From assembly GCA_041662285.1 (NCBI GenBank), contig JBAZSS010000004.1, positions 1 to 52,464 of the forward strand: a stretch of 52,464 nt of DNA, read 5' to 3'. Of this stretch, positions 2,389-50,344 are shown in pieces. The notes below the pieces were generated by a model. The model saw only the letters and a program-made list of their open reading frames with translations, searched no databases and was not told the DNA's origin. Numbering within the stretch: the first letter of the stretch is position 1; every line of letters begins with the position of its first letter. A program made the position numbers and the translations under genes. The stretch comes from Parcubacteria group bacterium. Lineage in GTDB: Bacteria; Patescibacteriota; Minisyncoccia; Moranbacterales; UBA2206.

Positions 2389-3369
2389 TCATTTAATTTT
2401 TTTCAAATTTTCTTGAAACTTTTCAAATATTTTCGGCCCTTGATTTTCAAAATCCGGCCAAAAAGCCAGCTCCGCTTCCGAGCAAATTATTATCCCTCCT
2501 TTTTTCTCCGTGAGCGGATTTTTTTTGATTTTTTCTGTTTGCCAAGTTTTAAGCTTTTTTTCAATCCAGCTTGATGAAAATAATTTCTCCAAAAAAAATC
2601 TCATTCCCCTGGAAAATTGACTATCATTAACGGTTTTTAGATTATTTTCCAAAAATGAAAAATTTGGCCGATAATTTTTTATCCACACATTTTTTTCCAG
2701 AAGTTTTCCAAACAAATCTCCGCCGTAAAGCGGAGTGATGAAAATATAATTATGCGAAGAATATAAATCTTGCACACAGACTTCCAACTTATCCGTTATG
2801 AAATGATTGAAGCAAATTCGATTAGATATTTTATCCTCATGCCTTCTTTCCCCCAAAAAATGAACCAACACTGTTGCCAAAAATCTGCCAGTGAAAATTT
2901 TCCCATGCTTGAAAATAATTAGCATGTCAATATCACTGCCACTGCGAGAATTTTTTGCTCCCACTCTTCCGGCCACCGCTATCATTTTCACAAACGGCAC
3001 GAATCTCAGCCAAAAAATAATTTTTCTGGCTTTTTTGAGCTTCATGTTAGAAATCTTGTTCCTTTCAATTCTTTTTTCAACTAAATTTTCTTTTCCTTTC
3101 AAAAAATAGAATCCGCGAAATTCGTCGACATGCTTTTTGATTTCTTCTTTTTCCAACTCATTGATAACTTCCGCCAAAGAATAATTCTTATTTTCTCTGT
3201 CTTGATTATTGTTCATTGTTCGTTGATCATTGATCAAGTATTTCCAAATTTCAAATGCTGTCATTGGATAATCCATGACATCATAGTAAGCAATCGTAGA
3301 TAGAATGTTTTTAGCTAATCCTTCCTGCATATTATTTATAAATACTTTCCCGTCCAACTTCTCTGGCAT
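2389..3369 (-). CDS. nucleotidyltransferase-domain protein (Pol-beta superfamily) with an N-terminal winged-helix-like region
   Basis: 326-aa ORF with an NTase motif GRVGAKNSRSGSDIDMLIIF (G-S...D-x-D). It overlaps the uvrA-paralog stop by 34 nt; an alternative start at 3330 gives a 5-nt gap. Confidence 0.7.
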   Translation of the reverse strand: MPEKLDGKVFINNMQEGLAKNILSTIAYYDVMDYPMTAFEIWKYLINDQRTMNNNQDRENKNYSLAEVINELEKEEIKKHVDEFRGFYFLKGKENLVEKRIERNKISNMKLKKARKIIFWLRFVPFVKMIAVAGRVGAKNSRSGSDIDMLIIFKHGKIFTGRFLATVLVHFLGERRHEDKISNRICFNHFITDKLEVCVQDLYSSHNYIFITPLYGGDLFGKLLEKNVWIKNYRPNFSFLENNLKTVNDSQFSRGMRFFLEKLFSSSWIEKKLKTWQTEKIKKNPLTEKKGGIIICSEAELAFWPDFENQGPKIFEKFQENLKKIK

Positions 3370-6125
3370 TTTTTTAGTCCCTCTGGAAGTCCAGCATAAA
3401 CTATTTCTCCTCCCCCGCTACCGCCCTCTGGACCAAGATCAATCACCCAGTCGGAATTTCTCACTACATCTGAATTATGCTCCACCACCAGTACTGAATT
3501 GCCCTTTTCCACTAGAGCATCCAAGACTTTCAAAAGTTTTTTGACATCCTCAAAGTGCAATCCAATAGTTGGCTCGTCTAGTATATATAATGTTTTTCCG
3601 GTGGATTTTCGTGAAAGTTCGGTGGCTACTTTTATCCTCTGCGCCTCTCCCCCAGACAAATTCGTGGCGCTTTGTCCAAGTCGCAAATATCCCAAGCCAA
3701 CTTTTTCCAGCGTTTGCAATTTTTCGGCAATGAGTGGGGATTTTTTGAAAAATCGCAGAGCATATGACACACTCATATCTAAAACTTGAGCAATGTTTAC
3801 TCCCTGATATTCAATATCAAGTGTTTTTTGATTGTAACGCGTCCCAAGACATGATTCGCATTTCACATACATATCCGGCATCAAATGCATTTCAATTTTT
3901 TTTGTGCCATCACCCTGACATTGTTCACATCGTCCACCTTTCATATTGAAACTAAAACGACTAGCGTCATAACCGCGATTTTTTGATTCCTCTGTGAGCG
4001 CAAAAATCTCTCGAATTTGAGAAAAAACTCCGGTGTACGTGGCCGCGTTAGATCTCGGCGTGCGTCCAATCGGCGATTGATCAACATTAATAACCTTATC
4101 AATAAAATTCAAGCCAGTTATTTTTCTGTGACGCCCAGGAATTTCATAGGCACGGAAAAAATGTTTTGAAAGTGCTACGGCTAAAATGTCCGACACTAAA
4201 GTTGATTTGCCTGACCCAGAAACTCCCGTAATAGCCACAAATCTTCCTAATGGAATTTCTGCGTCAATATTTTTCAAATTATGTTCAGTTGCACCCAAAA
4301 TTTTCAAATATTTTTCCGATTTTTCACGAGGTTTTTTCTTCTCGGAAACTTTTTCCCGCCCGCTCAAAAATCCGGCAGTTTTAGTTTTGGAAGCTTTGAG
4401 TTTTGCAATATCGCCTTGAAATATAACTTCTCCACCCTCTTCGCCCGCCCCGGGGCCCATATCAATTATCCAATCCGCTTTTTCAATTATTTCTTTGTCG
4501 TGCTCCACGACAATCACAGAATTTCCATTTTCTTTCAAAAATTGCATCGTTTGAATTAGTTTTTGCGTGTCTCGGTTATGCAGTCCGACTGAAGGTTCAT
4601 CTAGGACATAAATTATTCCAGAAAGCTTGGAACTGATTTGCGTCGCTAAACGAATTCTTTGTCCTTCTCCGCCAGAAATAGAATCCGCCGAGCGAAAAAG
4701 TTCCAAATATTCCAAACCAACATTTTTAAGCGCTTCGGCTTTTTCTTCCATTTCTTTTATGAGCGGTTCCATTATCTCTTTTTTCCCTTCTACCATTGGC
4801 TCCGCCATTAAATTTTTCAAAAAAATCAAAAAAGAATCCACATCCATCTTCACCGCGTCATCAATAGATTTTCCGGAAATTAAAACTGACAAATAGGCTT
4901 CTTTCAATTTTTTTCCCGCGCATTTTGAACAAACGGTTTTTCGCATATACTTTTCCGTTTCTTTTTTGAATATAAAAGAAGAAGATTCTTCATATTTCTT
5001 TTTGATCAAAGTTATTATTCCGGGAAAAGAAATCCCTCTGGATAAATCTTCATACCCGCCAAAAATTATCTCCATATTTTCGGGACTAATTTTTCCAATT
5101 GGTTTGTCGATAGAAAATCCCTTAATCTTTCCAATTTTTTCTAAAATATCTAAATAGCTTCCTTCAGTTCGCATTCGCCCACCCAATTTTGAAAGTGGCA
5201 AAACTGCCCCTTCGGAGAGTGACAAATTCTTATTGGGAACAACCAATTCTCTGTCAATCTCTTGCACCACGCCCAGGCCCGCACAAACTGGACAAGCGCC
5301 TTCTGGACTGTTGAAAGAAAAATTTTTCGGAGTAATTTCTGGAATTTCAAAAAAACAATTACTACAAACAAAATCGCGATTATAAATCCGACTTTCACCG
5401 TTGTCCAAAGCGATGGCCATAAAGCCTCGGCCTAATTTGAAAGCTGTTTCAATTGAATCCAGAATTCTCTCCTTGTCCGGTTTTTGACTTTTGAAAGTTA
5501 TTCGATCAACCACAATTTCCACATTGCCATTTAATATTTGCTCTTTGTTTGCCAACACCTCAGCAATCAAAACTGTTTTCCCATCAATTCTCGCTCTGGC
5601 ATATCCCAGTTGACTAATATTTTTCAAAATTTCTTCCATGCTTTTTCCGTCTTGCCGAATTCTGGCGAGAATTATAATTTGCATGTTGTCCGGCATTTCC
5701 AAAATTTCTTCAATTATTTCTTGATTTTTCTTTCTCGCCATTGGCAATCGACAATGTGGACAATAGGGCGTGCCAACCTTAGCAAACAGAATTCGCAGAT
5801 AATCATAAATTTCTGTCATTGTACCAACAGTTGAGCGTGGAGAACGACTGATGCTTTTTTGATCAATCGAAATCGTCGGACTTAAATTTTCAATTTTATC
5901 CGCGTCCGGCTTGGCGGAAATTTCCAAAAATTGTCGAGCATAACTCGACAAACTTTCCAGATACCGTCGATTGCCCTCAGCGTGAATGACATCAAAAGCC
6001 AAAGTTGATTTTCCACTGCCGGAAAGACCTGTGATCACCACCACCTTGTCCCGAGGAATTTCAATGCTAATGTTTTTCAAATTGTTGACTCTAGCGCCAA
6101 AGATTTTTATTTTATCTCGTTTCAT
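3336..6125 (-). CDS. excinuclease ABC subunit A paralog (full-length UvrA-family ABC ATPase)
   Basis: 929-aa ORF. Walker A motifs [12 protein letters not shown] and [13 protein letters not shown] signatures [12 protein letters not shown] and [12 protein letters not shown]. CxxC zinc modules (CPHC, CSNC, CPVC, CSKC, CEQC, CESC). Confidence 0.9.
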
Positions 6126-6135
6126 ATTTTTTTAA

Positions 6136-6274
6136 GACTTACACGTTTTTCTGAAAATATATTTATGTAGCCATGACAATGGCAGGATTAAAATCTATAA
6201 TTGCTATCTATAATCTTAGTTGAGTTTTTTTGTAATTTCAGCGAACAATATATTTGAAGAAAAGCGCGTAAGTC
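6136..6274. repeat. GACTTACG-family long palindromic element, copy A (~139 nt)
   Basis: About 85 percent identical to 21899..22038. The ~28-nt terminal arms are complementary. Starts 11 nt upstream of the uvrA-paralog start codon. Confidence 0.8.
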
Positions 6275-6333
6275 ATATTCTTACCTCACTGGATATTAAT
6301 CTTACAAGAAAATTTAGGTTTTGGCAAGCCAAA

Positions 6334-6366
6334 CAAAAAAACACAACCCTTTAAAATCTCGGGTTG
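6334..6366 (-). terminator. possible intrinsic terminator downstream of abiEii
   Basis: The minus strand reads CAACCC-GAGATTTTAAA-GGGTTG followed by TGTTTTTTT. It lies about 200 nt after the stop. Confidence 0.4.
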
Positions 6367-6562
6367 AGCTTTTTATAAAATTACAAAATATTTATTTTAT
6401 TTCCACCAATATAACTTCGTTAGTCGTACTATTGTATTGAATTGACAATTCTTTATTTTCTGATCATAGGATTATAATTTTATTTTTTAAGCCTATCGTA
6501 ATTATACCACATTTCTATTTCCGCGCCAACGCTTGGTTATCCGCAACCCATGCAAATAGCTT

Positions 6563-7339
6563 TTAAAGTTCGAGGTTTTTTATATACTTTGCGAAAAGAA
6601 TCACCTTTTTGGAGTCCTTAGCATTGAATAAAAATGGTTCGACATCCTCAGCTAACTCATTAAAATTAATTTTGTCAGAAAAAATAGCCAGCTTGCTTTT
6701 CAGCTCTTGCCAGTTTTTAATTTTCAATTTCAATTGAAGATAATCATAATTAGGTTTAGTTTTAGAAAGCAAAAATACCGTGTCAAAAAAATCCCTGCCT
6801 TTCAAAGCTTTGCGATTGAAAATTGCAAATATTTTTTGCGACAAAATAATATCCAGCGGGGTGACATTGATTTCTGTGAACACATCAAACTTATTGAGAA
6901 TCGCTTTTTCTGGTTTATATTGAAAATTATGCGGAGCCGTATCTAGCTGAATAAGAATCTTTTCTTCTTCGTAGCCAGAAAGACCGCTATCGAAAAGTAG
7001 TTTTGGAATTCGGATGTAGCAACGATAAGCACCTTTGAAAACATTTCTAATTTCTACTGCATAACCTTCCAGCTCCAGTTGTTTTTTCACCACTAGCGAT
7101 ATTTCATTGAATTCTTTTTCGCTAAGACCAAAATTATCAAAATCCAAATCTTCTGAAAATCTATTGTTATCATAAATGATCCGCAAGGCTGTTCCACCCA
7201 AAAACGCAAGTCTTTTGGCATATTTTGAATTGAAAATAATTTGCAAAATTTTGTATTGCAAATATTCGCGCAACAGATTGCGTTTAAAAACTTGAATATT
7301 TTCAGGATAATATTTTTCGATTTCTTGCAAGCTAAGCAT
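6563..7339 (-). CDS. abiEii: AbiEii/AbiGii-family nucleotidyltransferase toxin (type IV toxin-antitoxin / abortive infection)
   Basis: 258-aa ORF. The N-terminal LREYLQYKILQ...LAFLGGTALRIIYDNNRFSEDLDFD matches the family hallmark. It overlaps the upstream antitoxin ORF by 8 nt. Confidence 0.88.
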   Translation of the reverse strand: MLSLQEIEKYYPENIQVFKRNLLREYLQYKILQIIFNSKYAKRLAFLGGTALRIIYDNNRFSEDLDFDNFGLSEKEFNEISLVVKKQLELEGYAVEIRNVFKGAYRCYIRIPKLLFDSGLSGYEEEKILIQLDTAPHNFQYKPEKAILNKFDVFTEINVTPLDIILSQKIFAIFNRKALKGRDFFDTVFLLSKTKPNYDYLQLKLKIKNWQELKSKLAIFSDKINFNELAEDVEPFLFNAKDSKKVILFAKYIKNLEL

Positions 7340-7946
7340 TGAGATATTTCACAAAATTATTAATTCTTTTTTCCAGTGCCTTATTGTTAAATTGGGATAA
7401 ATATTCATTGAATTTTTTCATATCAACTTTTTCTTGAAATATATCCCTATTAATTCGAAGCTCTTCAAATTCCCCTATTGTCTTAAGCTTAGAATTTACA
7501 TAAAAATAATCTAGGATTGCTTTTTCGATTTCTGCTATTTTGAAATTATGATTTTGATAGGCAACCAACTGATAGCCAAACATAAGCTCGGGCTTGATAT
7601 GATGAAAATTAAACTGACCCAGCGGAGAAGCAAGCTTATAGGTTTTTTTGGATGTGACTGAAGTAATGCCATAAACGCTTTCTGGAATAAGACCATAATA
7701 TGACAGTGCCATTTCCAATGAAATATACGATGGTTCAAAAATTTTATTGGCGATAATAAACAAAACCGACTCATTAATTTGCGTGTCAGAAAAAACATAG
7801 AACCCCTTAGTAATTTTCTTGATGTAGCCTTTTTTCTGCCACTCACTCAATCGTTGCTTATGAAAATCCAAATCAACCTTTGATATATCATTAGCCGAAA
7901 AAACCATAAAATCCTTTAAATTGTCCTTTATTTCTAAATATTGCAT
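7332..7946 (-). CDS. abiEi: AbiEi-family antitoxin / transcriptional regulator
   Basis: 204-aa ORF. N-terminal wHTH-like FSANDISKV...LSEWQKKGYIKKITKGFYVF is typical of AbiEi. Translationally coupled to abiEii. Confidence 0.8.
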   Translation of the reverse strand: MQYLEIKDNLKDFMVFSANDISKVDLDFHKQRLSEWQKKGYIKKITKGFYVFSDTQINESVLFIIANKIFEPSYISLEMALSYYGLIPESVYGITSVTSKKTYKLASPLGQFNFHHIKPELMFGYQLVAYQNHNFKIAEIEKAILDYFYVNSKLKTIGEFEELRINRDIFQEKVDMKKFNEYLSQFNNKALEKRINNFVKYLNA

Positions 7947-7988
7947 AATTATTCCATATTGTTCCTAAAAAGCGGAACTATATGGATT

Positions 7989-8017
7989 ATATTAGCACAT
8001 AATTCCATCGCCGTCAA
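7989..8017 (-). promoter_or_regulatory. candidate promoter of the abiEi-abiEii operon (TTGACG-17 nt-TAATAT on the minus strand)
   Basis: Lies 43-70 nt upstream of the abiEi ATG and overlaps the uvrC stop. A TTATCCACA box sits just upstream of the -35. Confidence 0.45.
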
Positions 8018-9393
8018 ACTAAATTATCCACACCCCCTAAAAATCCTTTACTCCTCAATTTTCTATGATACCCAATCGCAAAGCGGTGGGCTTCGTTTCT
8101 GATTTGCTCGATTATATTTTGGTCTAATTCTGGAACATTGCCGAATGTTCTCAGATCTAGTTTTTTTCGAGTTGGTCCTTTGGCCACTGCTAAAAGTGGA
8201 ATTTCCAGTTTATAATTTTTCAGAATTCTGCGAGCCATATTAAGATGACCCGCTCCCCCATCAAGCAAAATTAAATTGGGCAACGGCCAGCCTCGCGTCG
8301 ACGAGCGGTCGTCTCCGCGAGTCGAGGCGGGCCACTTATTTTCAAATCGTCGCATCAAAACTTCTCGCATTGCACCTACATCATCCGCCCCATCAACTGT
8401 TTTTATTTTGAATTTGCGATACCGAGCTTTATTTGGCCCAATTTCGCCATATGAATTATCAAACACCACCATTGATCCGACATTAAATTTCCCGGAAATA
8501 TTGGAAATGTCATACCCCTCAATCCTCAAAGTCCCCCTCTCCTTTATAAGGAGAGGGTCGGGGTGAGGTTTGTCCGAAATGAGAGCGATATCCCGAATAT
8601 GCTGCAACGCAAAAATTTTGTTTCTAATTTCCCCCGCCTTTTCAAATTCTTCTTTTTTCGAATACTCGGCCATTTCTTTTTTCAATTTAATTAGCAAGTT
8701 TTTCTTTTTCCCCTCCAAAATCATTCTGATCCCGCGAATATTTTTTTGGTAATCACTTTTCGAAATTGCGCCAGCATACGGCCCAGGACAAAGTCCCAGC
8801 TGAAAATCCAGACACCCCTTTTCCGAATTTTCTTTTTTATTGTGATAGGGAAATATTTTTCTCAATATTTTTAGCGCAATTTCGATTTGTTTTTTACTTG
8901 TATAAGGGCCGAAAATCTTAGTATTTTTTAATTCTTTCGCATTACCCCCTCTCCTTAATAAGGAGAGGGTTGGGGTGAGGTTCCCCAGTTCTGTTTTTCT
9001 GACAACCAATAATCGTGGGAAATCTTCTTTAGTTATAGCAACATAGGAAAATGATTTATCATCTTTCCCGTCAACATTATATTTCGACTGAAATTTTTTG
9101 ATCAATTCTTGTTCCAAAATATACGCCTCCAAAACCGTCTCAGTTTTTCTAATTTCAATATCCCTAACTTCCGAAATCATAATTTCAATCGGTCTTGAGG
9201 TTTGACCCCCCTCTCCTTTATAAGGAGAGGGGCTGGGGGTGAGGTGGCGGGGAGGAAAATATGATCCAACTCGGTCTCTTAAGCTTGTCGCCTTTCCAAC
9301 ATAAACAACTTCACCCATCTTATTTTTGAAAACATACACCCCTGGTGAATTGGGAAATTTAGCTATTTTATTTTTTAATTTTAGCAATTTCAT
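8014..9393 (-). CDS. uvrC: excinuclease ABC subunit C, compact form without a C-terminal (HhH)2 domain, carrying three repeat-derived in-frame insertions
   Basis: 459-aa ORF. GIY-YIG (PGVYVFKNKMGEVVYVGKATSLRDRVGSYF), UVR motif (EFEKAGEIRNKIFALQHI) and endonuclease domain (RIEGYDISNISG ... AHRFAIGYHRK). It ends right after the endonuclease domain. Confidence 0.85.
   Translation of the reverse strand: MKLLKLKNKIAKFPNSPGVYVFKNKMGEVVYVGKATSLRDRVGSYFPPRHLTPSPSPYKGEGGQTSRPIEIMISEVRDIEIRKTETVLEAYILEQELIKKFQSKYNVDGKDDKSFSYVAITKEDFPRLLVVRKTELGNLTPTLSLLRRGGNAKELKNTKIFGPYTSKKQIEIALKILRKIFPYHNKKENSEKGCLDFQLGLCPGPYAGAISKSDYQKNIRGIRMILEGKKKNLLIKLKKEMAEYSKKEEFEKAGEIRNKIFALQHIRDIALISDKPHPDPLLIKERGTLRIEGYDISNISGKFNVGSMVVFDNSYGEIGPNKARYRKFKIKTVDGADDVGAMREVLMRRFENKWPASTRGDDRSSTRGWPLPNLILLDGGAGHLNMARRILKNYKLEIPLLAVAKGPTRKKLDLRTFGNVPELDQNIIEQIRNEAHRFAIGYHRKLRSKGFLGGVDNLV
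8533..8570. repeat. GC-rich palindromic element P1 inside uvrC (in frame)
   Basis: CCCCCTCTCCTTTATAAGGAGAGGGTCGGGGTGAGGTT, translated on the minus strand as ...PHPDPLLIKERGT... Confidence 0.85.
8945..8982. repeat. GC-rich palindromic element P2 inside uvrC (in frame)
   Basis: CCCCCTCTCCTTAATAAGGAGAGGGTTGGGGTGAGGTT, translated as ...NLTPTLSLLRRGGN... Confidence 0.85.
9206..9247. repeat. GC-rich palindromic element P3 inside uvrC (in frame)
   Basis: CCCCCCTCTCCTTTATAAGGAGAGGGGCTGGGGGTGAGGTGG, translated as ...HLTPSPSPYKGEGGQ... Confidence 0.85.
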
Positions 9394-9431
9394 ATATTTT
9401 TATTCAGTGTAATCAGGATAATCAGTGCGAA

Positions 9432-12317
9432 TCAGTGGTTCAGAATTTCTCTCAAATATTTCCCTGTCCAACTTTCTTTATGATATTTCGCCACTTCTTC
9501 CGGCGTACCAGAAACAATTAGTTTTCCCCCGCCGTCTCCGCCCTCCGGCCCAAGGTCAATTATCCAATCAGCTGTTTTTATCACATCCATATTATGCTCG
9601 ATGACCACCACGGTGTTGCCGGCGTCCACCAAACGATTCAAAACTTTCAAAAGTTTTTTGATATCATCAAAATGCAAGCCGGTAGTTGGTTCATCTAAAA
9701 TATAGAGTGTGTCGCCTGTGGCTCGACGAGAAAGCTCAGTGGCTAATTTTATCCTCTGCGCTTCTCCGCCAGAAAGTGTGGTGGCACTTTGCCCCAGCTG
9801 AATATACCCCAAGCCCACATCTTCCAAAACTGCTAGCTTATCATGAATTTCAGGAAAATTTTGAAAAAATTCTCGTGCATCCGTGATTGTCAAATCCAAC
9901 ACTTCCGCAATATTTTTCTCCTTATATTTCACTTTCAAAGTTTCACTATTATATCTTTTTCCATTACAAATATCGCACGGCAGATAGACATCCGGCATAA
10001 ATTGCATTTCGATTTTAAGTTGTCCGTCCCCTTGGCAATTGTCGCATCTTCCACCCTTAACATTAAACGAAAATCTCCCAGGAGAATATCCTTTGCTCTT
10101 AGCATCTCGCGTCTCGGCAAAAAGTTCGCGAATAGGTGTGAAAAGGCCGGTGTAGGTGGCCGGATTAGACCTCGGCGTTCTTCCAATTGGACTTTGATCA
10201 ATCATAATAATCTTGTTGATATAGTGCGCGCCAACAATTTCACTGTGCTTGCCAGGGCGATCCAATGTTCGCATAATGTCACGCGCCAAAGATTTATACA
10301 GCACATCTTCGACCAGGGTTGATTTTCCAGAGCCAGAAACTCCCGTCACGCAAGTCAAAACTTTCAAAGGAAATTCTACTGTGACGTTTTTGAGATTATG
10401 CTCACGCGCTCCGCGCACAATAATAGATTTTTTGTTTTTCATACTCCGCCGAGAAGTTGGGATTTCAATGGATAATTCTTTTCGAAGATACTTAGCCGTA
10501 AGTGATTTTTTATTCTTCAAAACTTCCTGCGGTGTTCCAGAAGCGATAATTTCTCCGCCGTGACGCCCCGCTCCTGGACCAATATCCACCAAGTAATCGG
10601 CTGCTAACATTGTTTCTTCGTCATGTTCAACCACAATCAAAGTATTGCCAACATCGCGCAGTCGCAAAAGTGTTTCCAAAAGTTTAGTGTTATCTCTAGC
10701 ATGAAGCCCGACTGATGGTTCATCTAGAATATAGAGTACGCCAACTAATTGCGAACCAATTTGCGAAGCCAAACGAATTCTCTGCGCTTCTCCACCCGCC
10801 AAAGTTGCCGCGCTTCGTCCCAGTGTCAGATATCCCAGTCCTACATTTTCCAAAAAACTCAAACGATTTTTAATTTCGGTGAGAATTCTGCCTGCAATCA
10901 ATTCTTCTTTTTGACTAAATTTCAATTCCTTGAAAAATTTCAACGCTTCAAAAATACTCACCGAAGAAATTTCTGAAATATTTTTGTTATGCACTGTCAC
11001 CAAAAGAACTTCTTTTTTATATCTTACACCAAGACACTCCGAGCAAGGATTTTGCGACATATATTTTTCCGTGTCTGCACGCACCGCATCTGATTGCGTT
11101 TTCTTATATTTATCTTGCAAATAGCCAACCGCTCCGCGCCAATTCATATTATATTTCCAAACCGCCCCTGTTTTTGAGCGTAGTGTCACTGGGATCTGCT
11201 CGGCATTTTCTTCTGAAATCATATCTTTCGCATCTTTGTCTCCAAAGAGCAAGATATTAAAATCTTCTTCCGACAAATCTCGCAAGCGCGTATTTTCTGA
11301 GATATGAAAATGATTTGTCACAGCGCGAAGGATTGTTCCTTGCCAATTATTTTTCTTATAACTCCACGGCATAATTGCCCCTTCAGCAATAGTCTTGTTT
11401 TTATCCGGTGCCACAAGTTGTGGATCGATTTCTTTTTTTGTCCCTAATCCTTCACAAGCTGGGCAAGCCCCATAGGGGCTATTGAAAGAAAACAATCGCG
11501 GTTCCAGTTCCGGAAATTCAATTTCATGAATCGGACAAGCCAAATTTTGATTGAAAACCATTTCATTAACCTTTGACTTTTGACCTTTGACTTTTGACCT
11601 TATTTTAACTAGTCCTTCTGACAATTTCAATGCTTTTTCTACTCCTTCAAAAATCCGCGAAATATTTTTGTCCGAAATTTCAACTTCATCCACCAAAATA
11701 TCAATGCTATGCTTTTTATATTTTTCCAGTTTCATCTGCTCTTTTATCTTGGCATTAAGTTCAATTTTTTTTCCATTGACATAGGCAAAAGAATATCCAC
11801 GTCGAAACATCTCTGAGAGCATAGTGCCGTATTCCCCTTTTCTTTGCCTGACAACTGGCGAAAGAATTTCAATTTGGCATTCTCCGCACATATCAATTAC
11901 CCTATCCACAATTTCATCTACCGAAAGCCTAGTGATTTCTCGATTACACTCCGGACAATGAGGAATTCCAATTTTAGCATAAAGCAACCGCAGATAATCC
12001 TGAATTTCCGTCACTGTGCCCACAGTGGAGCGTGGATTATGCGAAGCCGCTTTTTGATCAATCGAAATGGCCGGTGAAAGGCCTTCAATATAATCGACAT
12101 CCGGCTTGTCCATTTGACCCAAAAACTGCCGAGCATAAGAAGACAAACTTTCCAAATAGCGCCTTTGACCTTCCGCAAAAATTGTGTCAAAAGCCAGCGT
12201 GCTCTTGCCAGAACCGCTAATGCCCGTGAAAACTATGAATTTATTTCTCGGAAGCTTAAGATCAATATTTTTTAAATTATGTTCTCTTGCTCCTTTAATA
12301 ATAATCTCGTCTTGCAT
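9432..12317 (-). CDS. uvrA: excinuclease ABC subunit A
   Basis: 961-aa [71 protein letters not shown]. Two ABC signatures ([24 protein letters not shown]) and zinc modules. Confidence 0.95.
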   Translation of the reverse strand: MQDEIIIKGAREHNLKNIDLKLPRNKFIVFTGISGSGKSTLAFDTIFAEGQRRYLESLSSYARQFLGQMDKPDVDYIEGLSPAISIDQKAASHNPRSTVGTVTEIQDYLRLLYAKIGIPHCPECNREITRLSVDEIVDRVIDMCGECQIEILSPVVRQRKGEYGTMLSEMFRRGYSFAYVNGKKIELNAKIKEQMKLEKYKKHSIDILVDEVEISDKNISRIFEGVEKALKLSEGLVKIRSKVKGQKSKVNEMVFNQNLACPIHEIEFPELEPRLFSFNSPYGACPACEGLGTKKEIDPQLVAPDKNKTIAEGAIMPWSYKKNNWQGTILRAVTNHFHISENTRLRDLSEEDFNILLFGDKDAKDMISEENAEQIPVTLRSKTGAVWKYNMNWRGAVGYLQDKYKKTQSDAVRADTEKYMSQNPCSECLGVRYKKEVLLVTVHNKNISEISSVSIFEALKFFKELKFSQKEELIAGRILTEIKNRLSFLENVGLGYLTLGRSAATLAGGEAQRIRLASQIGSQLVGVLYILDEPSVGLHARDNTKLLETLLRLRDVGNTLIVVEHDEETMLAADYLVDIGPGAGRHGGEIIASGTPQEVLKNKKSLTAKYLRKELSIEIPTSRRSMKNKKSIIVRGAREHNLKNVTVEFPLKVLTCVTGVSGSGKSTLVEDVLYKSLARDIMRTLDRPGKHSEIVGAHYINKIIMIDQSPIGRTPRSNPATYTGLFTPIRELFAETRDAKSKGYSPGRFSFNVKGGRCDNCQGDGQLKIEMQFMPDVYLPCDICNGKRYNSETLKVKYKEKNIAEVLDLTITDAREFFQNFPEIHDKLAVLEDVGLGYIQLGQSATTLSGGEAQRIKLATELSRRATGDTLYILDEPTTGLHFDDIKKLLKVLNRLVDAGNTVVVIEHNMDVIKTADWIIDLGPEGGDGGGKLIVSGTPEEVAKYHKESWTGKYLREILNH
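11570..11601. repeat. 14-nt tandem repeat (2.3 copies) inside uvrA, in frame
   Basis: CCTTTGACTTTTGACCTTTGACTTTTGACCTT on the + strand, encoding SKVKGQKSKV. Confidence 0.8.
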
Positions 12318-12337
12318 ATTTTTTATAATTTTATCTT

Positions 12338-12373
12338 ATTCGTACATTCGTACAGATTCGTAATTCGTAAGGG
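12338..12373. repeat. F1 (ATTCGTA-word) repeat, single arm
   Basis: ATTCGTACATTCGTACAGATTCGTAATTCGTAAGGG between lexA and uvrA. No complementary arm nearby. Confidence 0.7.
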
Positions 12374-12467
12374 ACACAAAAACCTGCCCCCTTTTGAGGT
12401 ACTTAATATTAATTTTTATCTTTCAATCATATTACACTTTAGCGCGAATATATGTTTCAATCAAGCT

Positions 12468-13136
12468 TTATAAACTAACGTACTTTACTGGCAAAACTTT
12501 CTTGAAAATTCCGGCAATTAGGATTGAATCGGATGAGTGAATGAAAATTGGTTGATGAATGGTGTTGGTAGATTTTGGAAAAAGTCCGATAATATCTGAG
12601 CTAACTTTCTTGTACCTTTTGATTGTCGCCATACCGTTTATCACGGCTACTACAATTTTTCCTTCCAAATCTTCTCCGTTAGAATATTCATATTTTTCAA
12701 AAATAGCATAATCACCATCATTAATTCCATCTTTATCCATTGAATCCCCAAGAGTCTTCACTGCAAAAAGTTGAGCACTATCCGCTCCGCGAAAAAGCGC
12801 TTTGGAAATTTGCAAAAATCCATCGACATTGTCCTGGGCATAGGCCAAAGCTTCACCACAAGAAGCCAAGCCATAAACTGGAATGGAAAAAATATTTTTT
12901 AGATTGGCAAAACTTTCATTTTCCACTAAATATACTTTTCTATCTTTGTCTCTTTTAATCAAATCTTTTTTCTCCAGAGCTTCTATCACCTGCATCACCG
13001 ATTTCAAACTGTCTCGCACACCTTGCGCTTCCAAATATTTATGCAATTTATAGCTAGTTGGATTTTCCCCGCGTTGTTCAATTAGCTCGCGGATGCTTTC
13101 TAAGATACTTTGTTGTTTGGCTGTTAGTGTTGGCAT
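12468..13136 (-). CDS. lexA: LexA-type repressor (S24 peptidase)
   Basis: 222-aa ORF. N-terminal wHTH, cleavage-region GLASCGEAL, catalytic GDSM serine motif and ATIKRYKK lysine motif. Confidence 0.82.
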   Translation of the reverse strand: MPTLTAKQQSILESIRELIEQRGENPTSYKLHKYLEAQGVRDSLKSVMQVIEALEKKDLIKRDKDRKVYLVENESFANLKNIFSIPVYGLASCGEALAYAQDNVDGFLQISKALFRGADSAQLFAVKTLGDSMDKDGINDGDYAIFEKYEYSNGEDLEGKIVVAVINGMATIKRYKKVSSDIIGLFPKSTNTIHQPIFIHSSDSILIAGIFKKVLPVKYVSL

Positions 13137-13147
13137 AAAATTATGTG

Positions 13148-13242
13148 ATGCTAATCAACTAATAAAAGCTAATCCGCTAATTGCTAATAAATTAATATTA
13201 TTCGCAATTCGCATCATTCGCATATATTTGTAGATTCGCATC
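13148..13242. repeat. F3 (GCTAAT / ATTCGCA-word) hairpin repeat in the lexA leader
   Basis: GATGCTAATCAACTAATAAAAGCTAATCCGCTAATTGCTAAT ... ATTCGCAATTCGCATCATTCGCATATATTTGTAGATTCGCATC. Confidence 0.7.
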
Positions 13243-13257
13243 GTTTATTATTTATTA

Positions 13258-13290
13258 CAGTGATATTCTAGCACTTATCAAATATCACTG
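13258..13290. promoter_or_regulatory. 10-bp inverted repeat CAGTGATATT-N13-AATATCACTG upstream of lexA (candidate operator)
   Basis: Perfect palindrome 122-154 nt upstream of the lexA ATG, followed by a C8 tract and TGTGGATAA. Confidence 0.3.
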
Positions 13291-13421
13291 CAAGCCCCCC
13301 CCTGTGGATAACTTTACCTGCCAGATTTGCTTATTTTATTAAATAGCCCCAACTAAGAATTAGGTTTATTTAACTCAAGCAGTTGAGGATAAATAACAAA
13401 ATAGGCAAATCAGGCAGGTAC

Positions 13422-13458
13422 AAAAAATCCCCCATTTTACTGAGGGATTTCGTTTTTT
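13422..13458 (-). terminator. intrinsic terminator after the thioredoxin-fold gene (bidirectional shape)
   Basis: AAAAAATCCC-CCATTTTACTGA-GGGATTT, with T/A runs on both sides. Confidence 0.6.
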
Positions 13459-13492
13459 ATTCTTCGCGTTTATGCTTCGTTTCTTTCGTGTT

Positions 13493-14527
13493 TTAATTGC
13501 AACTTCCGCCTTGTGTTGTAGCTGTGCTAGTGCTAAGAGTCTTGGCACATTCAGCTGGTGCAGTGTTGAAAGCCGCACAGATAGCTTGTTTATAGCTTTC
13601 CGAATCAGCGTATTTATAAACTGCCTTAGTTGAAACACCGTTGATCAGCATCGTTGGTGAACCACTCGCCTGTGCATCAGCAGAAATTTTTTCGTCCGCT
13701 TTCATAAGAGTTGCTCCTTCTGATTTTACACAAGTAGCAATCTTAGTTGAGTTTAGTCCAACACTCTTGGCGCCCGCTTCCCAACAAGCTCCATCACTTC
13801 CACAATTCTTGTTCACATAAGCGACAAAACTCACCCACTTATCCTTGCCGAAATATTTCAAAACACATGCCTCTCTTTCGTTTTGTACCACTTCTTTTTC
13901 TCCGTGCAAAGAATTGATTGTGTCTCCATTGGAACTCACGATATAGTGGAAATTGAAATCAACTTTGTTTTTGAGTAAATTATAGACTGATTGCAAAGTG
14001 TCTTCCGCTTTGTTGCCATAAGGACAAAAACTCATCACAAATAAATCAACTTTTGGTTTGTCAGTTTTTGGCACTTCTTTTTCTGGCTCAGCTGTTTTTT
14101 TCTTTTCTTCTGCGATGGTTTTTTTAGTTTCTTCTATGTCCATCGGAGCGCTTGGAAAGAATTTTTTTCCGTCCAATGAAAGGTAGGAATCAATTTCTTG
14201 TTTCTGATCTCCTTCACCAATTTTTACTTTCACCTTAAACATTCCATTTTCTTTGACCACTTCGGCTATTTCTGCTTTTGTTCCTTCTTGCATCAAATTG
14301 TTGTTGATAAAATCTTCTACTTGCGCCTTAGCCGATTTTTGGGTCAGATTGTTTTTCTTCCACACTTTTTCATAATAGCCCACCCCAGCAATAAGGATAA
14401 TCAAAACGATCACTCCAATCACTTGTGGCAAAAATTTCTTGTATTTTTCGCAACCACACTTTCCCTTTTCACAGCAATCCGCTGTTTCTGCTGTTTCAGG
14501 TTCTTTTTTTTCTGTTTCCATTTCCAT
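13493..14527 (-). CDS. membrane-anchored thioredoxin-fold (DsbA-like) protein with a Cys-rich cytoplasmic N-terminus
   Basis: 344-aa ORF. DCCEKGKCGCEK, then a TM helix (VIGVIVLIILIAGVGYY). Extracytoplasmic domain with FVMSFCPYGNKAED and several further Cys. Confidence 0.5.
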   Translation of the reverse strand: MEMETEKKEPETAETADCCEKGKCGCEKYKKFLPQVIGVIVLIILIAGVGYYEKVWKKNNLTQKSAKAQVEDFINNNLMQEGTKAEIAEVVKENGMFKVKVKIGEGDQKQEIDSYLSLDGKKFFPSAPMDIEETKKTIAEEKKKTAEPEKEVPKTDKPKVDLFVMSFCPYGNKAEDTLQSVYNLLKNKVDFNFHYIVSSNGDTINSLHGEKEVVQNEREACVLKYFGKDKWVSFVAYVNKNCGSDGACWEAGAKSVGLNSTKIATCVKSEGATLMKADEKISADAQASGSPTMLINGVSTKAVYKYADSESYKQAICAAFNTAPAECAKTLSTSTATTQGGSCN

Positions 14528-14626
14528 ATTTTTTTAATAGTTAACTTATTATTGTTCCTATATTATAAATAATCCCCCAATTTAACGCAAGCAGTCGATT
14601 TTTTTGGTTTTTTAGGAAATAAATAA

Positions 14627-14656
14627 GGGAGCGTGACAAATGATTGTCAGCTCCCC
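14627..14656 (-). terminator. stem-loop after ORF 14690..15037
   Basis: GGGAGC-G-TGACAA-ATGA-TTGTCA-GCTCCC. A 12-bp stem followed on the minus strand by TTATTTATTT. Confidence 0.45.
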
Positions 14657-14689
14657 ACACAGATACGCATTGGATTTTTTCTCCTTTCT

Positions 14690-15037
14690 TCAATTTCTTC
14701 CTACGAAACGGTTTTTAAATTTTTCAATATCAGAATCATCCCCTTTTAATACGATAATAACTTCACCAGTTTTTTCTTCTGGAACTGATCGTAAAAAAAG
14801 TGGGTCTCCTATTCTAGGCAAAATTCTGGTATCTGGAAGTCTCTTCCCGGTTTCATCAAACACAGAATCTGGACAATATATATTATGGTTCAATATAAAA
14901 TTATCCACTTCACCAGAATTAAAATACCTCGCAGGAACTCTCATCGGCTCCCCTACGTGCCAGCACATAATTTTCACCTTTTTCCTTTCTAAAGAATTAA
15001 AGAACAAAAAAATCATGCCGAAAGACATGATCACCAA
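14690..15037 (-). CDS. hypothetical small protein with an N-terminal hydrophobic segment
   Basis: 115-aa ORF co-directional with the operon. Its composition is far more protein-like than the overlapping + strand ORF 14640..15059. Confidence 0.45.
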   Translation of the reverse strand: MVIMSFGMIFLFFNSLERKKVKIMCWHVGEPMRVPARYFNSGEVDNFILNHNIYCPDSVFDETGKRLPDTRILPRIGDPLFLRSVPEEKTGEVIIVLKGDDSDIEKFKNRFVGRN

Positions 15038-15170
15038 TAAAATTTTTGTATTTATTTGATAAATAAATCAAAAACATACTATTCAAATTTATTTTTTATT
15101 TCCCCCGAACATCTGCCTATACTTCTATTTTATTCTTTCTTTGAAAACTTGCAAACTAAAGTTATCCACA

Positions 15171-15206
15171 CCCGCCCGCAACGCTTCGCGTAGCGATGCG
15201 GGCGGG
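15171..15206. repeat. GC-rich palindrome immediately 3' of uvrB
   Basis: CCCGCCCGCA-ACGCTTCGCGTAGCGA-TGCGGGCGGG. 10-bp outer stem and no U-tract on the minus strand. Preceded by TTATCCACA. Confidence 0.6.
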
Positions 15207-15211
15207 GCCCG

Positions 15212-17197
15212 TTATCTTATCTGTAATTTCCTAAGTTCCCCTATCTCATCCCGAATAATGGCGGCTTTTTCAAATTCCAGGTTTCTCGCAGAATCTTTCA
15301 TTTCTTTTTCACGCTGTTTAATATAGCCAGCGATGTCTTCCAAGTTTTCCAAATTAATAAATTCTTTGGGAATTTCCGATTTAATTTCGTGATCGACAAT
15401 GGATTCAATTTTCTTTTGAATAGTTTTGGGCGTGATGTGATGTTTTTTATTATACGCTGTTTGCAATTTTCTTCGCCGATTAGTTTCGTCGATGGCGCGT
15501 TTCATTGAGCCGGTTAGATTGTCGGCGTAGAGAATAACTTTCCCTCGCACATTTCGCGCGGCGCGACCAATTGTTTGAATAAGCGAAGTTTCACTGCGCA
15601 AAAACCCTTCTTTGTCCGCGTCAAAAATCGCCACGAGCGACACTTCCGGCAAATCCAAACCTTCTCGAAGAAGATTGACACCAACAAGAACATCAATGTC
15701 ACCTCGACGAAGTTTTTCTAAAATTCTAATGCGATCAAGTGTATCCACCCCGCTGTGCAGATATTCCGATTTAATTTGCGATTCTTTCAAAAATTCTGCC
15801 AAATCTTCCGCTTGTTTTTTGGTCAGAGCCGTGATAAGCACTCGCTCTTTGCGCGCCACTATCTTTTCAATCTCACCCATCACATCTTTCACTTGCCCCC
15901 GCGCGGATTTGATTTCAATCTCCGGATCAATTAGTCCTGTTGGACGGATAATTTGTTCGGCTATGTCTTTGGAATTTTCTTGCTCATATTTCCCCGGCGT
16001 CGCCGAAGTAAAAATAATTTGATTGATTTTTTTTTCAAATTCTTGAAATTTCAGCGGTCGATTGTCGTAGGCGCTCGGAAGTCTAAAGCCATTTTCCACT
16101 AGTGATGTTTTTCTGGAATAATCTCCGCTAAACATTCCGCCTAGTTGTGGAATGGTCACATGCGATTCATCTACCACCAAAAGAAAATCCTTTGGAAAAT
16201 AATCCATCAGAGTATATGGCGCTTCGCCGGCACGCCGTCCGGAAAGATAGCGTGAATAATTTTCAATGCCGTTGCAATATCCAATTTCTTTCATCATTTC
16301 AATGTCTTGCCTAGTTCGACGTGACAATCTTTCAGCTTCTAGAAGTTTCCCATTCTTTTTTAGATATTTTAAACGTTCTTCCAATTCTTTTTGAATTTCC
16401 TCTAGCGATTCTTCCATCACGGGCTCCGGCACCACAAAATGTTTAGCTGGATAAATGACAGCTCGTTCCAATTTTCCCAATTCTTCGCCGGTTAGAAAAT
16501 CATATTCAGAAATTTTTCTGATGGAATTATCTTCTAAAATTATTCGCGTAATCACTTCTCGTCCTGGGGTGATTACTTCCAAAGTGTTGCCCGTGAGACG
16601 AAATTTTCCTCTTGCCAAAATATCCGACCTGACATATTGCATATCAATTAATTTTCGGATTATTTCATCCCTACTAGATAGAGAAGCAAAATTTTGCGTC
16701 TCTACGGGCGCACCCACCACCAATTCCAAAGTTATATCCCGATAATATTCCGGACTCCCCAATCCATAGATACAAGAAACTGACGCGCAAATAATTACGT
16801 CAGGTCGAGAAAGCAAGGCCGCTGTGGCGGCATGACGCAAGCGATCGATTTCATCATTGATCTGCGATTCTTTTTCAATATAGGTATCGCTCGAAGCAAT
16901 GTAGGCTTCCGGTTGATAATAATCATAGTAACTGACAAAATATTCCACTGCATTTTTCGGAAAAAAAGTGCGAAACTCCTGTGCCAACTGCGCCGCCAAA
17001 GTTTTATTGGGGGCAATGACCAAGGTCGGTCTTTGCACTTTTTCAATCACATTGGCAATAGTAAAAGTCTTCCCCGACCCCGTCACACCCAAAAGCGTCT
17101 GGAACTTTTTCCCAGTTTCTAATCCCGCCACTAATTTACTAATTGCCTGTGGCTGATCCCCTTCGGGTTTGAATTTTGAATTAATCTTAAATTTCAT
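15212..17197 (-). CDS. uvrB: excinuclease ABC subunit B
   Basis: Conserved UvrB begins at MKFKINSKFKPEGDQPQAISKLV...GVTGSGKTF (ATG at 17197, GAGGGA about 10 nt upstream). Helicase motifs DESH and QTIGRAARN, and a C-terminal UVR motif. The 88 extra N-terminal residues of the 749-aa ORF read through intergenic repeats. Confidence 0.95.
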   Translation of the reverse strand: MKFKINSKFKPEGDQPQAISKLVAGLETGKKFQTLLGVTGSGKTFTIANVIEKVQRPTLVIAPNKTLAAQLAQEFRTFFPKNAVEYFVSYYDYYQPEAYIASSDTYIEKESQINDEIDRLRHAATAALLSRPDVIICASVSCIYGLGSPEYYRDITLELVVGAPVETQNFASLSSRDEIIRKLIDMQYVRSDILARGKFRLTGNTLEVITPGREVITRIILEDNSIRKISEYDFLTGEELGKLERAVIYPAKHFVVPEPVMEESLEEIQKELEERLKYLKKNGKLLEAERLSRRTRQDIEMMKEIGYCNGIENYSRYLSGRRAGEAPYTLMDYFPKDFLLVVDESHVTIPQLGGMFSGDYSRKTSLVENGFRLPSAYDNRPLKFQEFEKKINQIIFTSATPGKYEQENSKDIAEQIIRPTGLIDPEIEIKSARGQVKDVMGEIEKIVARKERVLITALTKKQAEDLAEFLKESQIKSEYLHSGVDTLDRIRILEKLRRGDIDVLVGVNLLREGLDLPEVSLVAIFDADKEGFLRSETSLIQTIGRAARNVRGKVILYADNLTGSMKRAIDETNRRRKLQTAYNKKHHITPKTIQKKIESIVDHEIKSEIPKEFINLENLEDIAGYIKQREKEMKDSARNLEFEKAAIIRDEIGELRKLQIR

Positions 17198-17382
17198 AAC
17201 TCTATCTTCCCTCAATTTCAAAATTTTGTCTAATTTATGATTATCCGCTATAATTAAACTGTTATGAAAAAGACTAAAGGGGAAAAACGGGAAAAGAAGA
17301 AAAAGCCGAAAATGCGAGTTTCCGGTAAAAGTGTGTTTAAAATAAAGGAAATTAAAGACAGAGGTTAAAAAATTCGTAGATT

Positions 17383-17402
17383 CCTGCCTACCGGCAGGCA
17401 GG
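17383..17402. repeat. GC-rich 20-mer palindrome CCTGCCTACCGGCAGGCAGG
   Basis: Exact reverse complement of 41293..41312. Lies in the uvrB / DUF360 divergent intergenic region, followed by ATTCGCA words. Confidence 0.8.
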
Positions 17403-17464
17403 CGCATGCATTCGCATATTCGCATCGCGACATTGACTAATAATTTAACTTTTGCTATCATAAT

Positions 17465-19788: not shown

Positions 19789-19796
19789 TTTATAAA

Positions 19797-19908
19797 CCTT
19801 ACGAATTACGAATTCTTACGAATGTACTAATGTGAGTTAAAAATAATTTTTATATTTTATTAAATTATTCGTATTTCGTACATTCGTATTGATTCGTAAT
19901 TCGTAAGG
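19797..19908. repeat. F1 long hairpin repeat (CCTTACGAATTACGAAT ... ATTCGTAATTCGTAAGG)
   Basis: About 112 nt and about 85 percent identical to 50228..50340. Arms pair over about 28 bp. The right end overlaps the SD (AAGGAG) of the PGI gene. Confidence 0.85.
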
Positions 19909-19923
19909 AGAAACAAAAAATTT

Positions 19924-21739: not shown

Positions 21740-21767
21740 TTGACAAAAATCTAGTTTAGAGTATAAT
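21740..21767 (+). promoter_or_regulatory. consensus sigma70-type promoter (TTGACA-16 nt-TATAAT)
   Basis: Both hexamers are perfect. The next + strand gene is rnj, about 330 nt downstream, with repeat copy B in between. Confidence 0.6.
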
Positions 21768-21898
21768 AGTATGATAATATAAACTTGCTTTAGAATTTCT
21801 TTTCTATATTTCTTGATAACTTGCATCCTAAAACTTTTAACGAGAAAATATTTTTCAGCCTTTTTTTAGATTTCTAAAACTTTATTTTATCATATTAA

Positions 21899-22038
21899 GA
21901 CTTACGTATTTTCCTGAAAATCTATTTACATAGCCAGTGCAATGGCAGGATTGCAACTACGTAACTTCTATCTATAATCTTAGTTTTGTTTTTTTGTAAT
22001 TTCAGCGAACAATAGATTTGAAGGGAAATGCGTAAGTC
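21899..22038. repeat. GACTTACG-family long palindromic element, copy B (~140 nt)
   Basis: Same order and orientation on the + strand as copy A. Ends 58 nt upstream of the rnj ATG, downstream of a consensus promoter. Confidence 0.8.
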
Positions 22039-22096
22039 ATTATTTTATCATTTTAATCATTAATTAATTAAGCTCATTTTAAAATGAGCAAACTAT

Positions 22097-42216: not shown

Positions 42217-42222
42217 AGAGTT

Positions 42223-42307
42223 CTTTACTAATTACTAATCAAATACTAATATACTAATTTATAAAAAATTATTAGTATATTCGTACAAAATTCGTAATTC
42301 GTAAAAA
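42223..42307. repeat. F1 hairpin repeat (ACTAAT/ATTCGTA variant), adk-map spacer
   Basis: CTTTACTAATTACTAATCAAATACTAATATACTAAT ... ATTAGTATATTCGTACAAAATTCGTAATTCGTAAAAA. Confidence 0.75.
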
Positions 42308-44819: not shown

Positions 44820-44826
44820 ATTAGTT

Positions 44827-44904
44827 CACAAAATTATACAGAATTTTACAGAATGACACGGATTTTTTTCTGTGTTGCTCTGTCGTTTTCTGTATCTTTC
44901 TGTT
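44827..44904. repeat. F2 hairpin repeat, S5-L15 spacer (where L30 would normally be)
   Basis: CACAAAATTATACAGAATTTTACAGAATGACACGGA-T7-CTGTGTTGCTCTGTCGTTTTCTGTATCTTTCTGTT. Confidence 0.85.
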
Positions 44905-46398: not shown

Positions 46399-46420
46399 TT
46401 TTTTACTGCTTTATTAAATT

Positions 46421-46462
46421 ATTCGTAATTCGTACATTCGTATTAATTCGTAATTTGTAAGG
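46421..46462. repeat. F1 repeat, single arm, S8-L6 spacer
   Basis: ATTCGTAATTCGTACATTCGTATTAATTCGTAATTTGTAAGG abuts the S8 stop codon. Confidence 0.7.
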
Positions 46463-46463
46463 A

Positions 46464-47057: not shown

Positions 47058-47068
47058 AATTTAATCTT

Positions 47069-47146
47069 ACATAATTACACAGAATTCTTACAGAACGACA
47101 CGGAATTTTTTCTGTATTGTTCTGTAATCTTCTGTGTTTTTCTGTT
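47069..47146. repeat. F2 hairpin repeat, L5-S14 spacer
   Basis: ACATAATTACACAGAATTCTTACAGAACGACACGGAA-TTTT-TTCTGTATTGTTCTGTAATCTTCTGTGTTTTTCTGTT. Confidence 0.85.
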
Positions 47147-47690: not shown

Positions 47691-47698
47691 GTTCTTTT

Positions 47699-48112: not shown

Positions 48113-48120
48113 AATAATAT

Positions 48121-49425: not shown

Positions 49426-49432
49426 GAATTTT

Positions 49433-50340: not shown

Positions 50341-50344
50341 TTAC

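Follow-up and report, generated by a model that had tools for sequence, protein, structure and literature searches.

Palindromic repeats beside uvrA2, rnj and lgt

The window, by which we mean the whole stretch of 52,464 nucleotides analysed here (contig JBAZSS010000004.1 of a Parcubacteria group bacterium of the Moranbacterales), contains a uvrA2-uvrC-uvrA-lexA-uvrB cluster and a ribosomal-protein operon. The former, at 3336-17461, is a nucleotide-excision-repair cluster with lexA, in which the uvrA paralog (uvrA2), uvrC, uvrA, lexA and uvrB are gathered; between the uvrA paralog and uvrC, it is interrupted by a gene (6563-7339) for an AbiEii-family toxin. The uvrC ORF (8014-9393, - strand) itself displays four GC-rich palindromic in-frame inserts (8285-8331, 8533-8570, 8945-8982 and 9207-9244), which include three copies of CCCCCTCTCCTTTATAAGGAGAGGGTCGGGGTGAGG, add the peptide loops LTPSPSPYKGEGG, LTPTLSLLRRGG, PHPDPLLIKERG and STRGDDRSSTRG and are reminiscent of the palindromic elements of Rickettsia, whose insertion sites lie within coding sequence; similar pieces of ~45 nt are also found at the Moranbacteria loci L008, L021 and L043.

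Within this setting, we found three copies of a non-coding palindromic element of 138-148 nt, which is also the total recovered from the window by a covariance model. Copy A occupies 6133-6277 of the + strand (core 6136-6274, plus three outer nucleotides in each inverted repeat, TAA...ATA) and falls within the 5'UTR of the - strand uvrA paralog (3336-6125), relative to which it is reversed. Copy B (21896-22041, core 21899-22038, +) lies in the 5' leader of rnj, which encodes RNase J (22097-23890, +), with gene and element co-oriented. The divergent copy C (2157-2310, core 2160-2307, +) is placed between a hypothetical gene (2389-3369, -) and lgt (1240-2106, -). The original prediction had located all three, with C at 2159-2308, and had put the identity of A and B at about 85 percent; the positions of A and B hold exactly, and we measure 83.8% identity between them and 61-62% between C and either. 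It had likewise placed the copies 11 nt, 58 nt and about 50 nt ahead of start codons, for which we obtain 10 nt (uvrA paralog), 58 nt (rnj) and 53 nt (lgt), and the shared + orientation of A and B, with their genes pointing in opposite directions, is as it described.

Each copy is bounded by complementary arms beginning at GACTTACG, which were predicted at about 28 nt and extend over ~29-32 nt, or ~32 nt with the outer TAG/CTA counted. In A, the left terminal inverted repeat, TAAGACTTACACGTTTTTCTGAAAATATATTT, covers 6133-6164 and the right one 6246-6277; in B, they cover 21896-21927 and 22010-22041, respectively (all +). The two ends agree at 25-28 of the 36 terminal positions, and the arms are interrupted by a conserved internal loop, which is 2x2 (GA/AG) in A and B and 3x2 (GAA/GA) in C. 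C thus has the same architecture as the other two and is found by the covariance model built from A/B-type copies (E=0.004). The small central hairpin that had been described, GCCA...TGGC, is present in the window, and related copies in L021, L040, L041 and L037 have it disrupted. When folded with RNA parameters on the + strand, A reaches -40.4 kcal/mol (z -5.7 relative to dinucleotide shuffles), B -45.4 (z -6.9) and C -41.5 (z -4.7), and in all three the + strand fold is better than that of the - strand by 5-12 kcal/mol.

The element codes for no transposase; its ORFs are just 4-16 codons long and unconserved between copies, and a small protein as the product was ruled out on the same ground. 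None of the 38 window ORFs scanned against Pfam is a transposase, and DDE_5 and DDE_Tnp_1 are absent from the element too. The remark in the original prediction that no transposase is nearby is thus correct, but it is no argument against a miniature inverted-repeat element (MITE), since a MITE is mobilised in trans. An element devoid of a DDE transposase is what is expected of a non-autonomous derivative, and we accordingly file it as derived from an insertion sequence (IS) group and not as an IS.

Element ends, target duplications and distribution in Moranbacteria

A pattern scan of species-representative genomes yielded copies in four Candidatus Moranbacteria MAGs together with a set of cyanobacterial elements (see below), and a metagenome scan added two more loci. 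A covariance model trained on 12 A/B-type copies recovers all copies and detected C-type copies at four additional loci. There are two subfamilies, the A/B-type and the C-type. Altogether, copies are found at at least 13 non-homologous loci in at least six genomes, with two to five seen per MAG (three of them here within 52 kb), an apparently low copy number per genome for a MITE; paralogues within a genome are 84-92% identical. No copy occurs in ~130 kb of more distant Moranbacteria, which indicates that the family is limited to a narrow clade, with few copies seen per genome. Weak covariance-model matches (window 19796-19909; L049 2398-2498) were set aside as belonging to another repeat family.

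A separate, unrelated class of intergenic palindromes in the window is built of the heptamer repeats TTACGAA/TTCGTAA, TACTAAT and ACAGAA and is found between ribosomal-protein genes and beside other operons (12320-12381, 19797-19917, 42221-42305, 44820-44903, 46410-46471, 47062-47145, 47697-47814, 48115-48198, 49431-49545 and 50228-50348). The same type is seen upstream of infC-rpmI-rplT in distant Moranbacteria (L049 2390-2500) and in L029 and L044, and may represent repeated protein-binding sites or another repeat-element family.

Alignment of 13 independent Moranbacteria copies shows that the conserved element reaches 3 nt farther out on each side (TAR...YTA) than the arms as originally delimited. 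On the left, positions -3/-2/-1 are T in nine, A in 10 and G in 11 of the 13, and on the right, where the bases outside the core are C/A-T-A, positions +2/+3 are T in 12 and A in 11. The end consensus is therefore T-A-G followed by GACTTACGC(A/G), with its mirror image at the opposite end, and the element as a whole reads TAG-GACTTACGCA...TGCGTAAGTC-CTA. As the three bases outside GACTTACG are conserved, the real ends are TAGGACTTACGC(A/G), which share 12 of 13 nt with the termini of a known IS group: they agree with the strictly conserved ends, CAGGACTTACGCA, of the ISPlag1 group of the IS701 family (family terminal consensus used: ---YACT-Y--YR). For L013 and for the family consensus, 12 of 13 nt agree, and for A, B and C 9-11 nt; the terminal matches stand at the same offset from the target duplication. 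Identity with the ISPlag1-group ends is restricted to the outer 9-12 nt, and further in the Moranbacteria elements are unrelated to them.

ISPlag1 of Planktothrix has a 29-bp terminal inverted repeat, CAGGACTTACGCAAGCACGC... (PMC2464740). We located a full copy on a Planktothrix plasmid, where the RefSeq gene name is "IS701-like element ISPlag1 family transposase", as well as two more elements with transposases 77% and 69% identical to that of ISPlag1 and the ends CAGGACTTACGCA on both sides. Cyanobacteria and a "Tatlockia" MAG contain autonomous ISs with the same outer 12-13 nt. In the ~0.5 Mb of Moranbacteria loci examined, we saw neither an autonomous element with such ends nor an ISPlag1-like transposase, and of the best 120 homologues of the ISPlag1 transposase, those assigned to a host are cyanobacterial. 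BLAST against plasmids with copy B or the Microcoleus element returned nothing useful, the Planktothrix plasmids being retrieved only by the ISPlag1 inverted repeat, and viral contigs gave 0 matches to two patterns.

The flanks of the same 13 insertions carry a 5-bp direct repeat immediately outside TAG...CTA. When the five bases beyond TAG are compared with the five beyond CTA, 36 of 65 match, against 20.7 +/- 4.2 (maximum 30) in the other registers that served as a control, and a permutation in which right flanks were shuffled among copies gives P=0.0007 for this register. Of the 13 Moranbacteria copies, one (L013, TATAA) has a perfect duplication and three retain 4/5 positions; for A, the candidate duplication consists of TTTTT (6128-6132) on the left and TTCTT (6278-6282) on the right, which match at 4/5 positions. 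The exception is B, which is flanked by a perfect 12-nt direct repeat, TTATTTTATCAT (21882-21893 and 22040-22051), outside the 5-bp register and found nowhere else in the window. A cyanobacterial MITE from Chroococcales (L001) displays a perfect duplication, ATATT, and so does an autonomous element in L066 (CTGCC, 5 bp). Duplications of 4 bp are known for the IS701 family and of 4-5 bp for the related ISH3 family (PMC2266710). Two other duplication types were considered and dropped, namely TA (IS630/Tc1-like) and 8-12 bp (IS4-like), as the register test favours 5 bp outside TAG...CTA; an origin from a retron or an IS200/IS605-type element (PATE, omega RNA) was rejected, given the true terminal inverted repeats and the target duplication.

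The rnj locus is syntenic across several relatives: L017 and L020 have the element at the position of B, it is missing from the rnj leaders of L046, L047 and L048, whose RNase J is 92%, 91% and 87% identical, respectively, and the leader of L045 (95%) has two copies at two positions other than that of B. Similarly, the uvrA2 5'UTR is without copy A in L055 (97% protein identity) and L056/L057 (94%), of which L056/L057 retain the C-type copy. Divergence of the AT-rich UTRs blurs clean empty-site comparisons in both the rnj leader and the uvrA2 5'UTR. Presence and absence at rnj and uvrA2 imply that the element is gained or lost precisely at its ends, as is a mobile element. In L058/L059/L060 (~9920-9990), the 5'UTR of the uvrA2 orthologue contains a different long hairpin (CCCCTCCCACTTTTTTAC...GTAAAAAAGTGGGAGGGG) where the window has A, and the same 5'UTR has thus gained different palindromic inserts in different lineages.

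The insertion settings comprise 5'UTRs, tiny spacers between tandem genes and the space between convergent genes, in both orientations; in tandem spacers the typical layout is a stop codon, 6-8 nt, the element, 14-15 nt and a start codon. The neighbours (rnj, uvrA2, lgt, asd and others) are unrelated, and A and the copy in L044 are reversed relative to the downstream gene. Six or seven of the nine A/B-type copies beside a gene start have their + strand oriented as the gene.

We also weighed the reading that these are structured DNA recombination sites, attC-like or targets of some other site-specific recombinase, bounding gene cassettes. Like integron attC sites, the elements are imperfect palindromes with conserved unpaired bases and covarying arms; moreover, C and A flank uvrA2 and the hypothetical gene here, a C-type and an A-type copy flank asd in four other genomes, and this C...A pair has the same order and orientation at the two unrelated loci. 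Against it, the ends are GACTTACG/CGTAAGTC with no GTTRRRY/RYYYAAC core, the window contains no integrase or other recombinase, the copies form no arrays but stand singly within UTRs, and the 5-bp duplication points to DDE-type transposition. Furthermore, in L055, the closest relative, uvrA2-hyp-lgt is intact and neither A nor C was seen, although the hyp-lgt spacer cannot be aligned there and hence provides no clean empty site for C. We regard such a recombination site as extremely improbable.

The features observed, namely IS-type termini, a target duplication, orthologous presence and absence, non-homologous loci, no conserved ORF and no Rfam match, lead us to conclude that A, B and C are very probably copies of a MITE, non-coding, non-autonomous derivatives of the ISPlag1 group (IS701 family, DDE transposase). 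Some of the fixed copies have probably been co-opted. The kind of element is thus already known; what is new is the family, in an unusual host, Moranbacteria. Mechanistically, the ~30-nt arms would be the terminal inverted repeats, presenting two copies of a single transposase-binding site; an ISPlag1-group DDE transposase supplied in trans would cut at the ends (T/C)AGGACTTACGCA, and insertion into AT-rich intergenic DNA would duplicate 5 bp.

Paired arm changes and conservation of fixed copies

The original prediction had taken paired substitutions in the arms as evidence for selection on a folded form and had named target duplications and an associated IS as pointing to a plain MITE instead. 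The paired changes are real: A and B differ at both members of three pairs with pairing kept, at columns 10/132 (G-C vs A-U), 16/127 (U-A vs C-G) and 25/118 (A-U vs C-G). Among 14 distinct A/B-type sequences, 96.3% of cells are paired and both-side changes are found in four of 40 pairs, a number reached in 2/500 shuffles. However, three of the four covarying pairs lie in the arms, the inner helices offering one double-change pair and many broken cells, and the C-type orthologues change on one arm only. Since both arms of a pair of terminal inverted repeats present the same transposase-binding site, symmetric changes can be expected even in the absence of an RNA fold. The paired changes are therefore as compatible with transposon ends as with an RNA fold and do not argue against a transposon origin. 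In addition, we found a 5-bp duplication in one register, unoccupied orthologous sites and IS-type termini, which is largely what had been named as the mark of a plain MITE. A paired change at a fixed locus was also observed at asd, where the C-type copies L021 96-241, L041 402-547, L043 1631-1776 and L040 2928-3073 are orthologous: in three of the four (L021, L041 and L043, with L040 contrasting), an 8-nt terminal motif is tandemly duplicated (GAATTTAAGGATTTAAGC), and in those three the termini GACTTAAGC/GCATAAGTC have become GATTTAAGC/GCTTAAATC.

A structured cis-regulatory or small RNA family, with no transposition and with a closing stem and interior fold kept by compensatory evolution, would account for the strong predicted folds, the rarity of the both-side changes in shuffles, the conserved tandem GA/AG loop, the preference for the + strand, the near-invariance of fixed copies and the position of B within a highly conserved rnj leader. 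It would leave unexplained the target duplications, the unoccupied orthologous sites and the IS-group termini, and is further opposed by inner helices that lack covariation and hold many broken pairs, by the small central hairpin being broken in several copies and by C-type orthologues evolving at about the flanking rate. The search for an RNA family that the original prediction had proposed, with a covariance model and Rfam, led to none: there is no Rfam match in the window at gathering thresholds, nor on eight related-copy loci at E-values up to 5. Orientation and position relative to genes are not constant and the set of genes, unrelated and approached from both sides, is not coherent, which is not the pattern of a cis-regulatory RNA. 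A K-turn was examined and rejected, as the GA/AG loop in A/B-type copies has no 3-nt bulge. We hold an RNA family without transposition to be very unlikely, and the element is not a new class of structured RNA.

The suspicion of selection beyond shared descent stands on other evidence, namely the 0-2 differences in 138-140 nt between orthologous A/B-type copies. Copy B differs from its counterparts in L017 and L020 at 0 and 1 of 140 nt, respectively, while the divergence of rnj at third codon positions is 20% and 24%; at the asd locus, the A/B-type copy shows one to two differences in 138 nt against 18-21% in the third codon positions of asd. Thus, orthologous A/B-type copies are 98.6-100% identical beside genes whose third codon positions differ by 18-24%. 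With the third-position rate as reference, binomial P is 1e-9 to 1e-16, and with the rate over the coding sequence as a whole it is 2e-3 to 2e-5. The constraint on the fixed element is about that of second codon positions. C-type orthologues are 89% identical, roughly the flanking rate.

Such near-identity could also be attributed to a plain decaying MITE with no host function, whose insertion alleles recently spread horizontally between related populations through homologous recombination or gene conversion. In favour of this, the family is young and narrow in its distribution, closely related genomes differ in copies, and around B a tract of ~100% identity reaches ~150 nt past the element on both sides and spans the entire leader (about 21745-22200), as expected of a recombination tract; for B, it is possible that leader-wide constraint or a recent recombination tract gives part of the signal. 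At asd, however, the flanks are down to 86-90% identity within 50 nt on either side, with the element at 98.6-99.3% in three pairwise comparisons. Recombination through flanking homology would leave identical flanks and is therefore no explanation there. The same pattern holds at two independent loci, and paralogues within a genome have not been homogenised. A decaying MITE would not be so extremely conserved from end to end, and we consider the absence of any host function unlikely.

Since orthologous copies are almost invariant, some fixed A/B-type copies of this MITE have probably been co-opted by the host, going by sequence comparison, most likely as transcribed UTR hairpins. Strand-related signals are suggestive of the + strand: besides the better folds and the orientation bias at gene starts, arm mismatches of the transition type are G.T on the + strand in 22 cases and A.C in nine. 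These signals are nonetheless not independent observations.

Upstream of B lies a consensus sigma-70-type promoter match, TTGACA-N16-TATAAT (21740-21767, +), which all relatives retain whether or not they have the element, and B would accordingly be transcribed within the rnj leader. A promoter-like TTGCCA-N17-TAAGAT of the uvrA paralog (6299-6327, -) is kept in relatives without A (there with TAATAT), so that A would be transcribed in antisense inside that 5'UTR. The rnj leader (window 21740-22096; L045-L047) is long and stands behind a perfect consensus promoter, and the promoter with the first ~60 nt is conserved in relatives; it has no Rfam match and may be a regulatory 5'UTR in its own right.

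With copies inside transcription units downstream of conserved promoters, a function at the RNA level is the most economical. Once transcribed in a UTR or an intercistronic spacer, the element would fold into an imperfect hairpin of ~30 bp, more favourably on the + strand, which could affect mRNA processing or stability as a substrate of RNase III or as a roadblock to the 5'-3' exonuclease activity of RNase J. A putative promoter-like TTGCAA-N16-TATAAT within B (21951-21978, +, towards rnj), the TATAAT block of which is conserved in A/B-type copies, could additionally provide a promoter reading out of the right end. We infer that the copy in the RNase J leader (B) is the best candidate for co-option. 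That a CPR bacterium has domesticated the MITE family as a mobile regulatory module, acting for example as a strand-specific structured RNA read by RNase III or RNase J, is a tentative and somewhat doubtful extension of this reading, in which the repeated capture of elements in the leader of the RNase J gene (B, and two in L045) hints at an autoregulatory circuit drawn from a transposon.

Relationship to known repeats and implications for Moranbacteria

The closest known relatives of the element are the ISPlag1-like systems. ISPlag1, its remnants in Planktothrix and the cyanobacterial MITEs (Microcoleus L002-L042 and Chroococcales L001) feature an identical outer motif, (C/T)AGGACTTACGCA, at both ends; they share with the Moranbacteria elements the 5-bp target duplication, short non-coding derivatives (124-197 bp in the ISPlag1-like systems) and a subterminal TTCNGCGAA / CAGCGAAC-like motif ~35-45 nt from one end. 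The Moranbacteria sequences differ in being unrelated beyond the outer ~12 nt, with T rather than C as the first base, in their host, a small-genome lineage of the Patescibacteria/CPR with no matching transposase seen in the loci examined, and in their low copy number and strongly constrained fixed copies. The cyanobacterial matches of the pattern scan share 12-17 nt with the IS ends and are short ISPlag1-like derivatives. Those from Microcoleus/Oscillatoriales (L002-L042, e.g., L006 6867-6997) are a 124-129-nt ISPlag1-like element in ~28 species genomes, with conserved flanks; they do not amount to many copies in Microcoleus, as the ~28 pattern-scan matches are one orthologous intergenic locus, and the element looks like an old fixed IS remnant kept across the genus.

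Several unrelated repeats of bacterial genomes resemble the family in form. The Correia elements of Neisseria (CREE/NEMIS) are likewise 100-155 bp long, have ~26-bp inverted repeats, reside in intergenic DNA and UTRs and have no known autonomous partner in their host. Their transcribed inverted repeats form hairpins that are cut by RNase III, and the elements can supply promoters, as we suggest for the Moranbacteria copies. They differ in their end sequences, in a TA rather than a 5-bp target duplication, in their hundreds of copies per genome and in their phylum, and the parallel is one of functional analogy only and not of membership. ERIC/IRU, RUP, BOX and Nezha are also small imperfect palindromes in transcribed intergenic DNA, and RUP is linked to IS630-Spn1 by its inverted repeats, but they are unrelated in sequence and behave differently in target duplication and copy number. 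Integron attC sites, imperfect palindromes of 57-141 nt, are comparable in the conservation of structure over sequence and in their conserved unpaired bases; the Moranbacteria element is without the R''/R' core (RYYYAAC...GTTRRRY), an integrase and cassette arrays.

The small genomes of the Patescibacteria/CPR are considered poor in mobile elements, and full-text searches on CPR/Patescibacteria and transposable elements yielded no account of MITEs in them. With the family described here, Moranbacteria would possess non-autonomous derivatives, still or until recently active, of an IS group known chiefly from cyanobacteria, and the presence of these ISPlag1-type derivatives points to transfer of a transposase across phyla. 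The derivatives land in the 5'UTRs of housekeeping genes and in tiny intercistronic spacers. For genome scans, they are a reminder that "compensatory" arm changes in a palindromic repeat cannot on their own tell RNA structure from a pair of transposase-binding sites. If the conservation of the fixed copies reflects function, they would constitute a clean natural case of transposon ends taken over as regulatory hairpins at the RNA level, and this in a bacterium not yet amenable to cultivation, and copy B offers a concrete, testable candidate for the control of RNase J expression.
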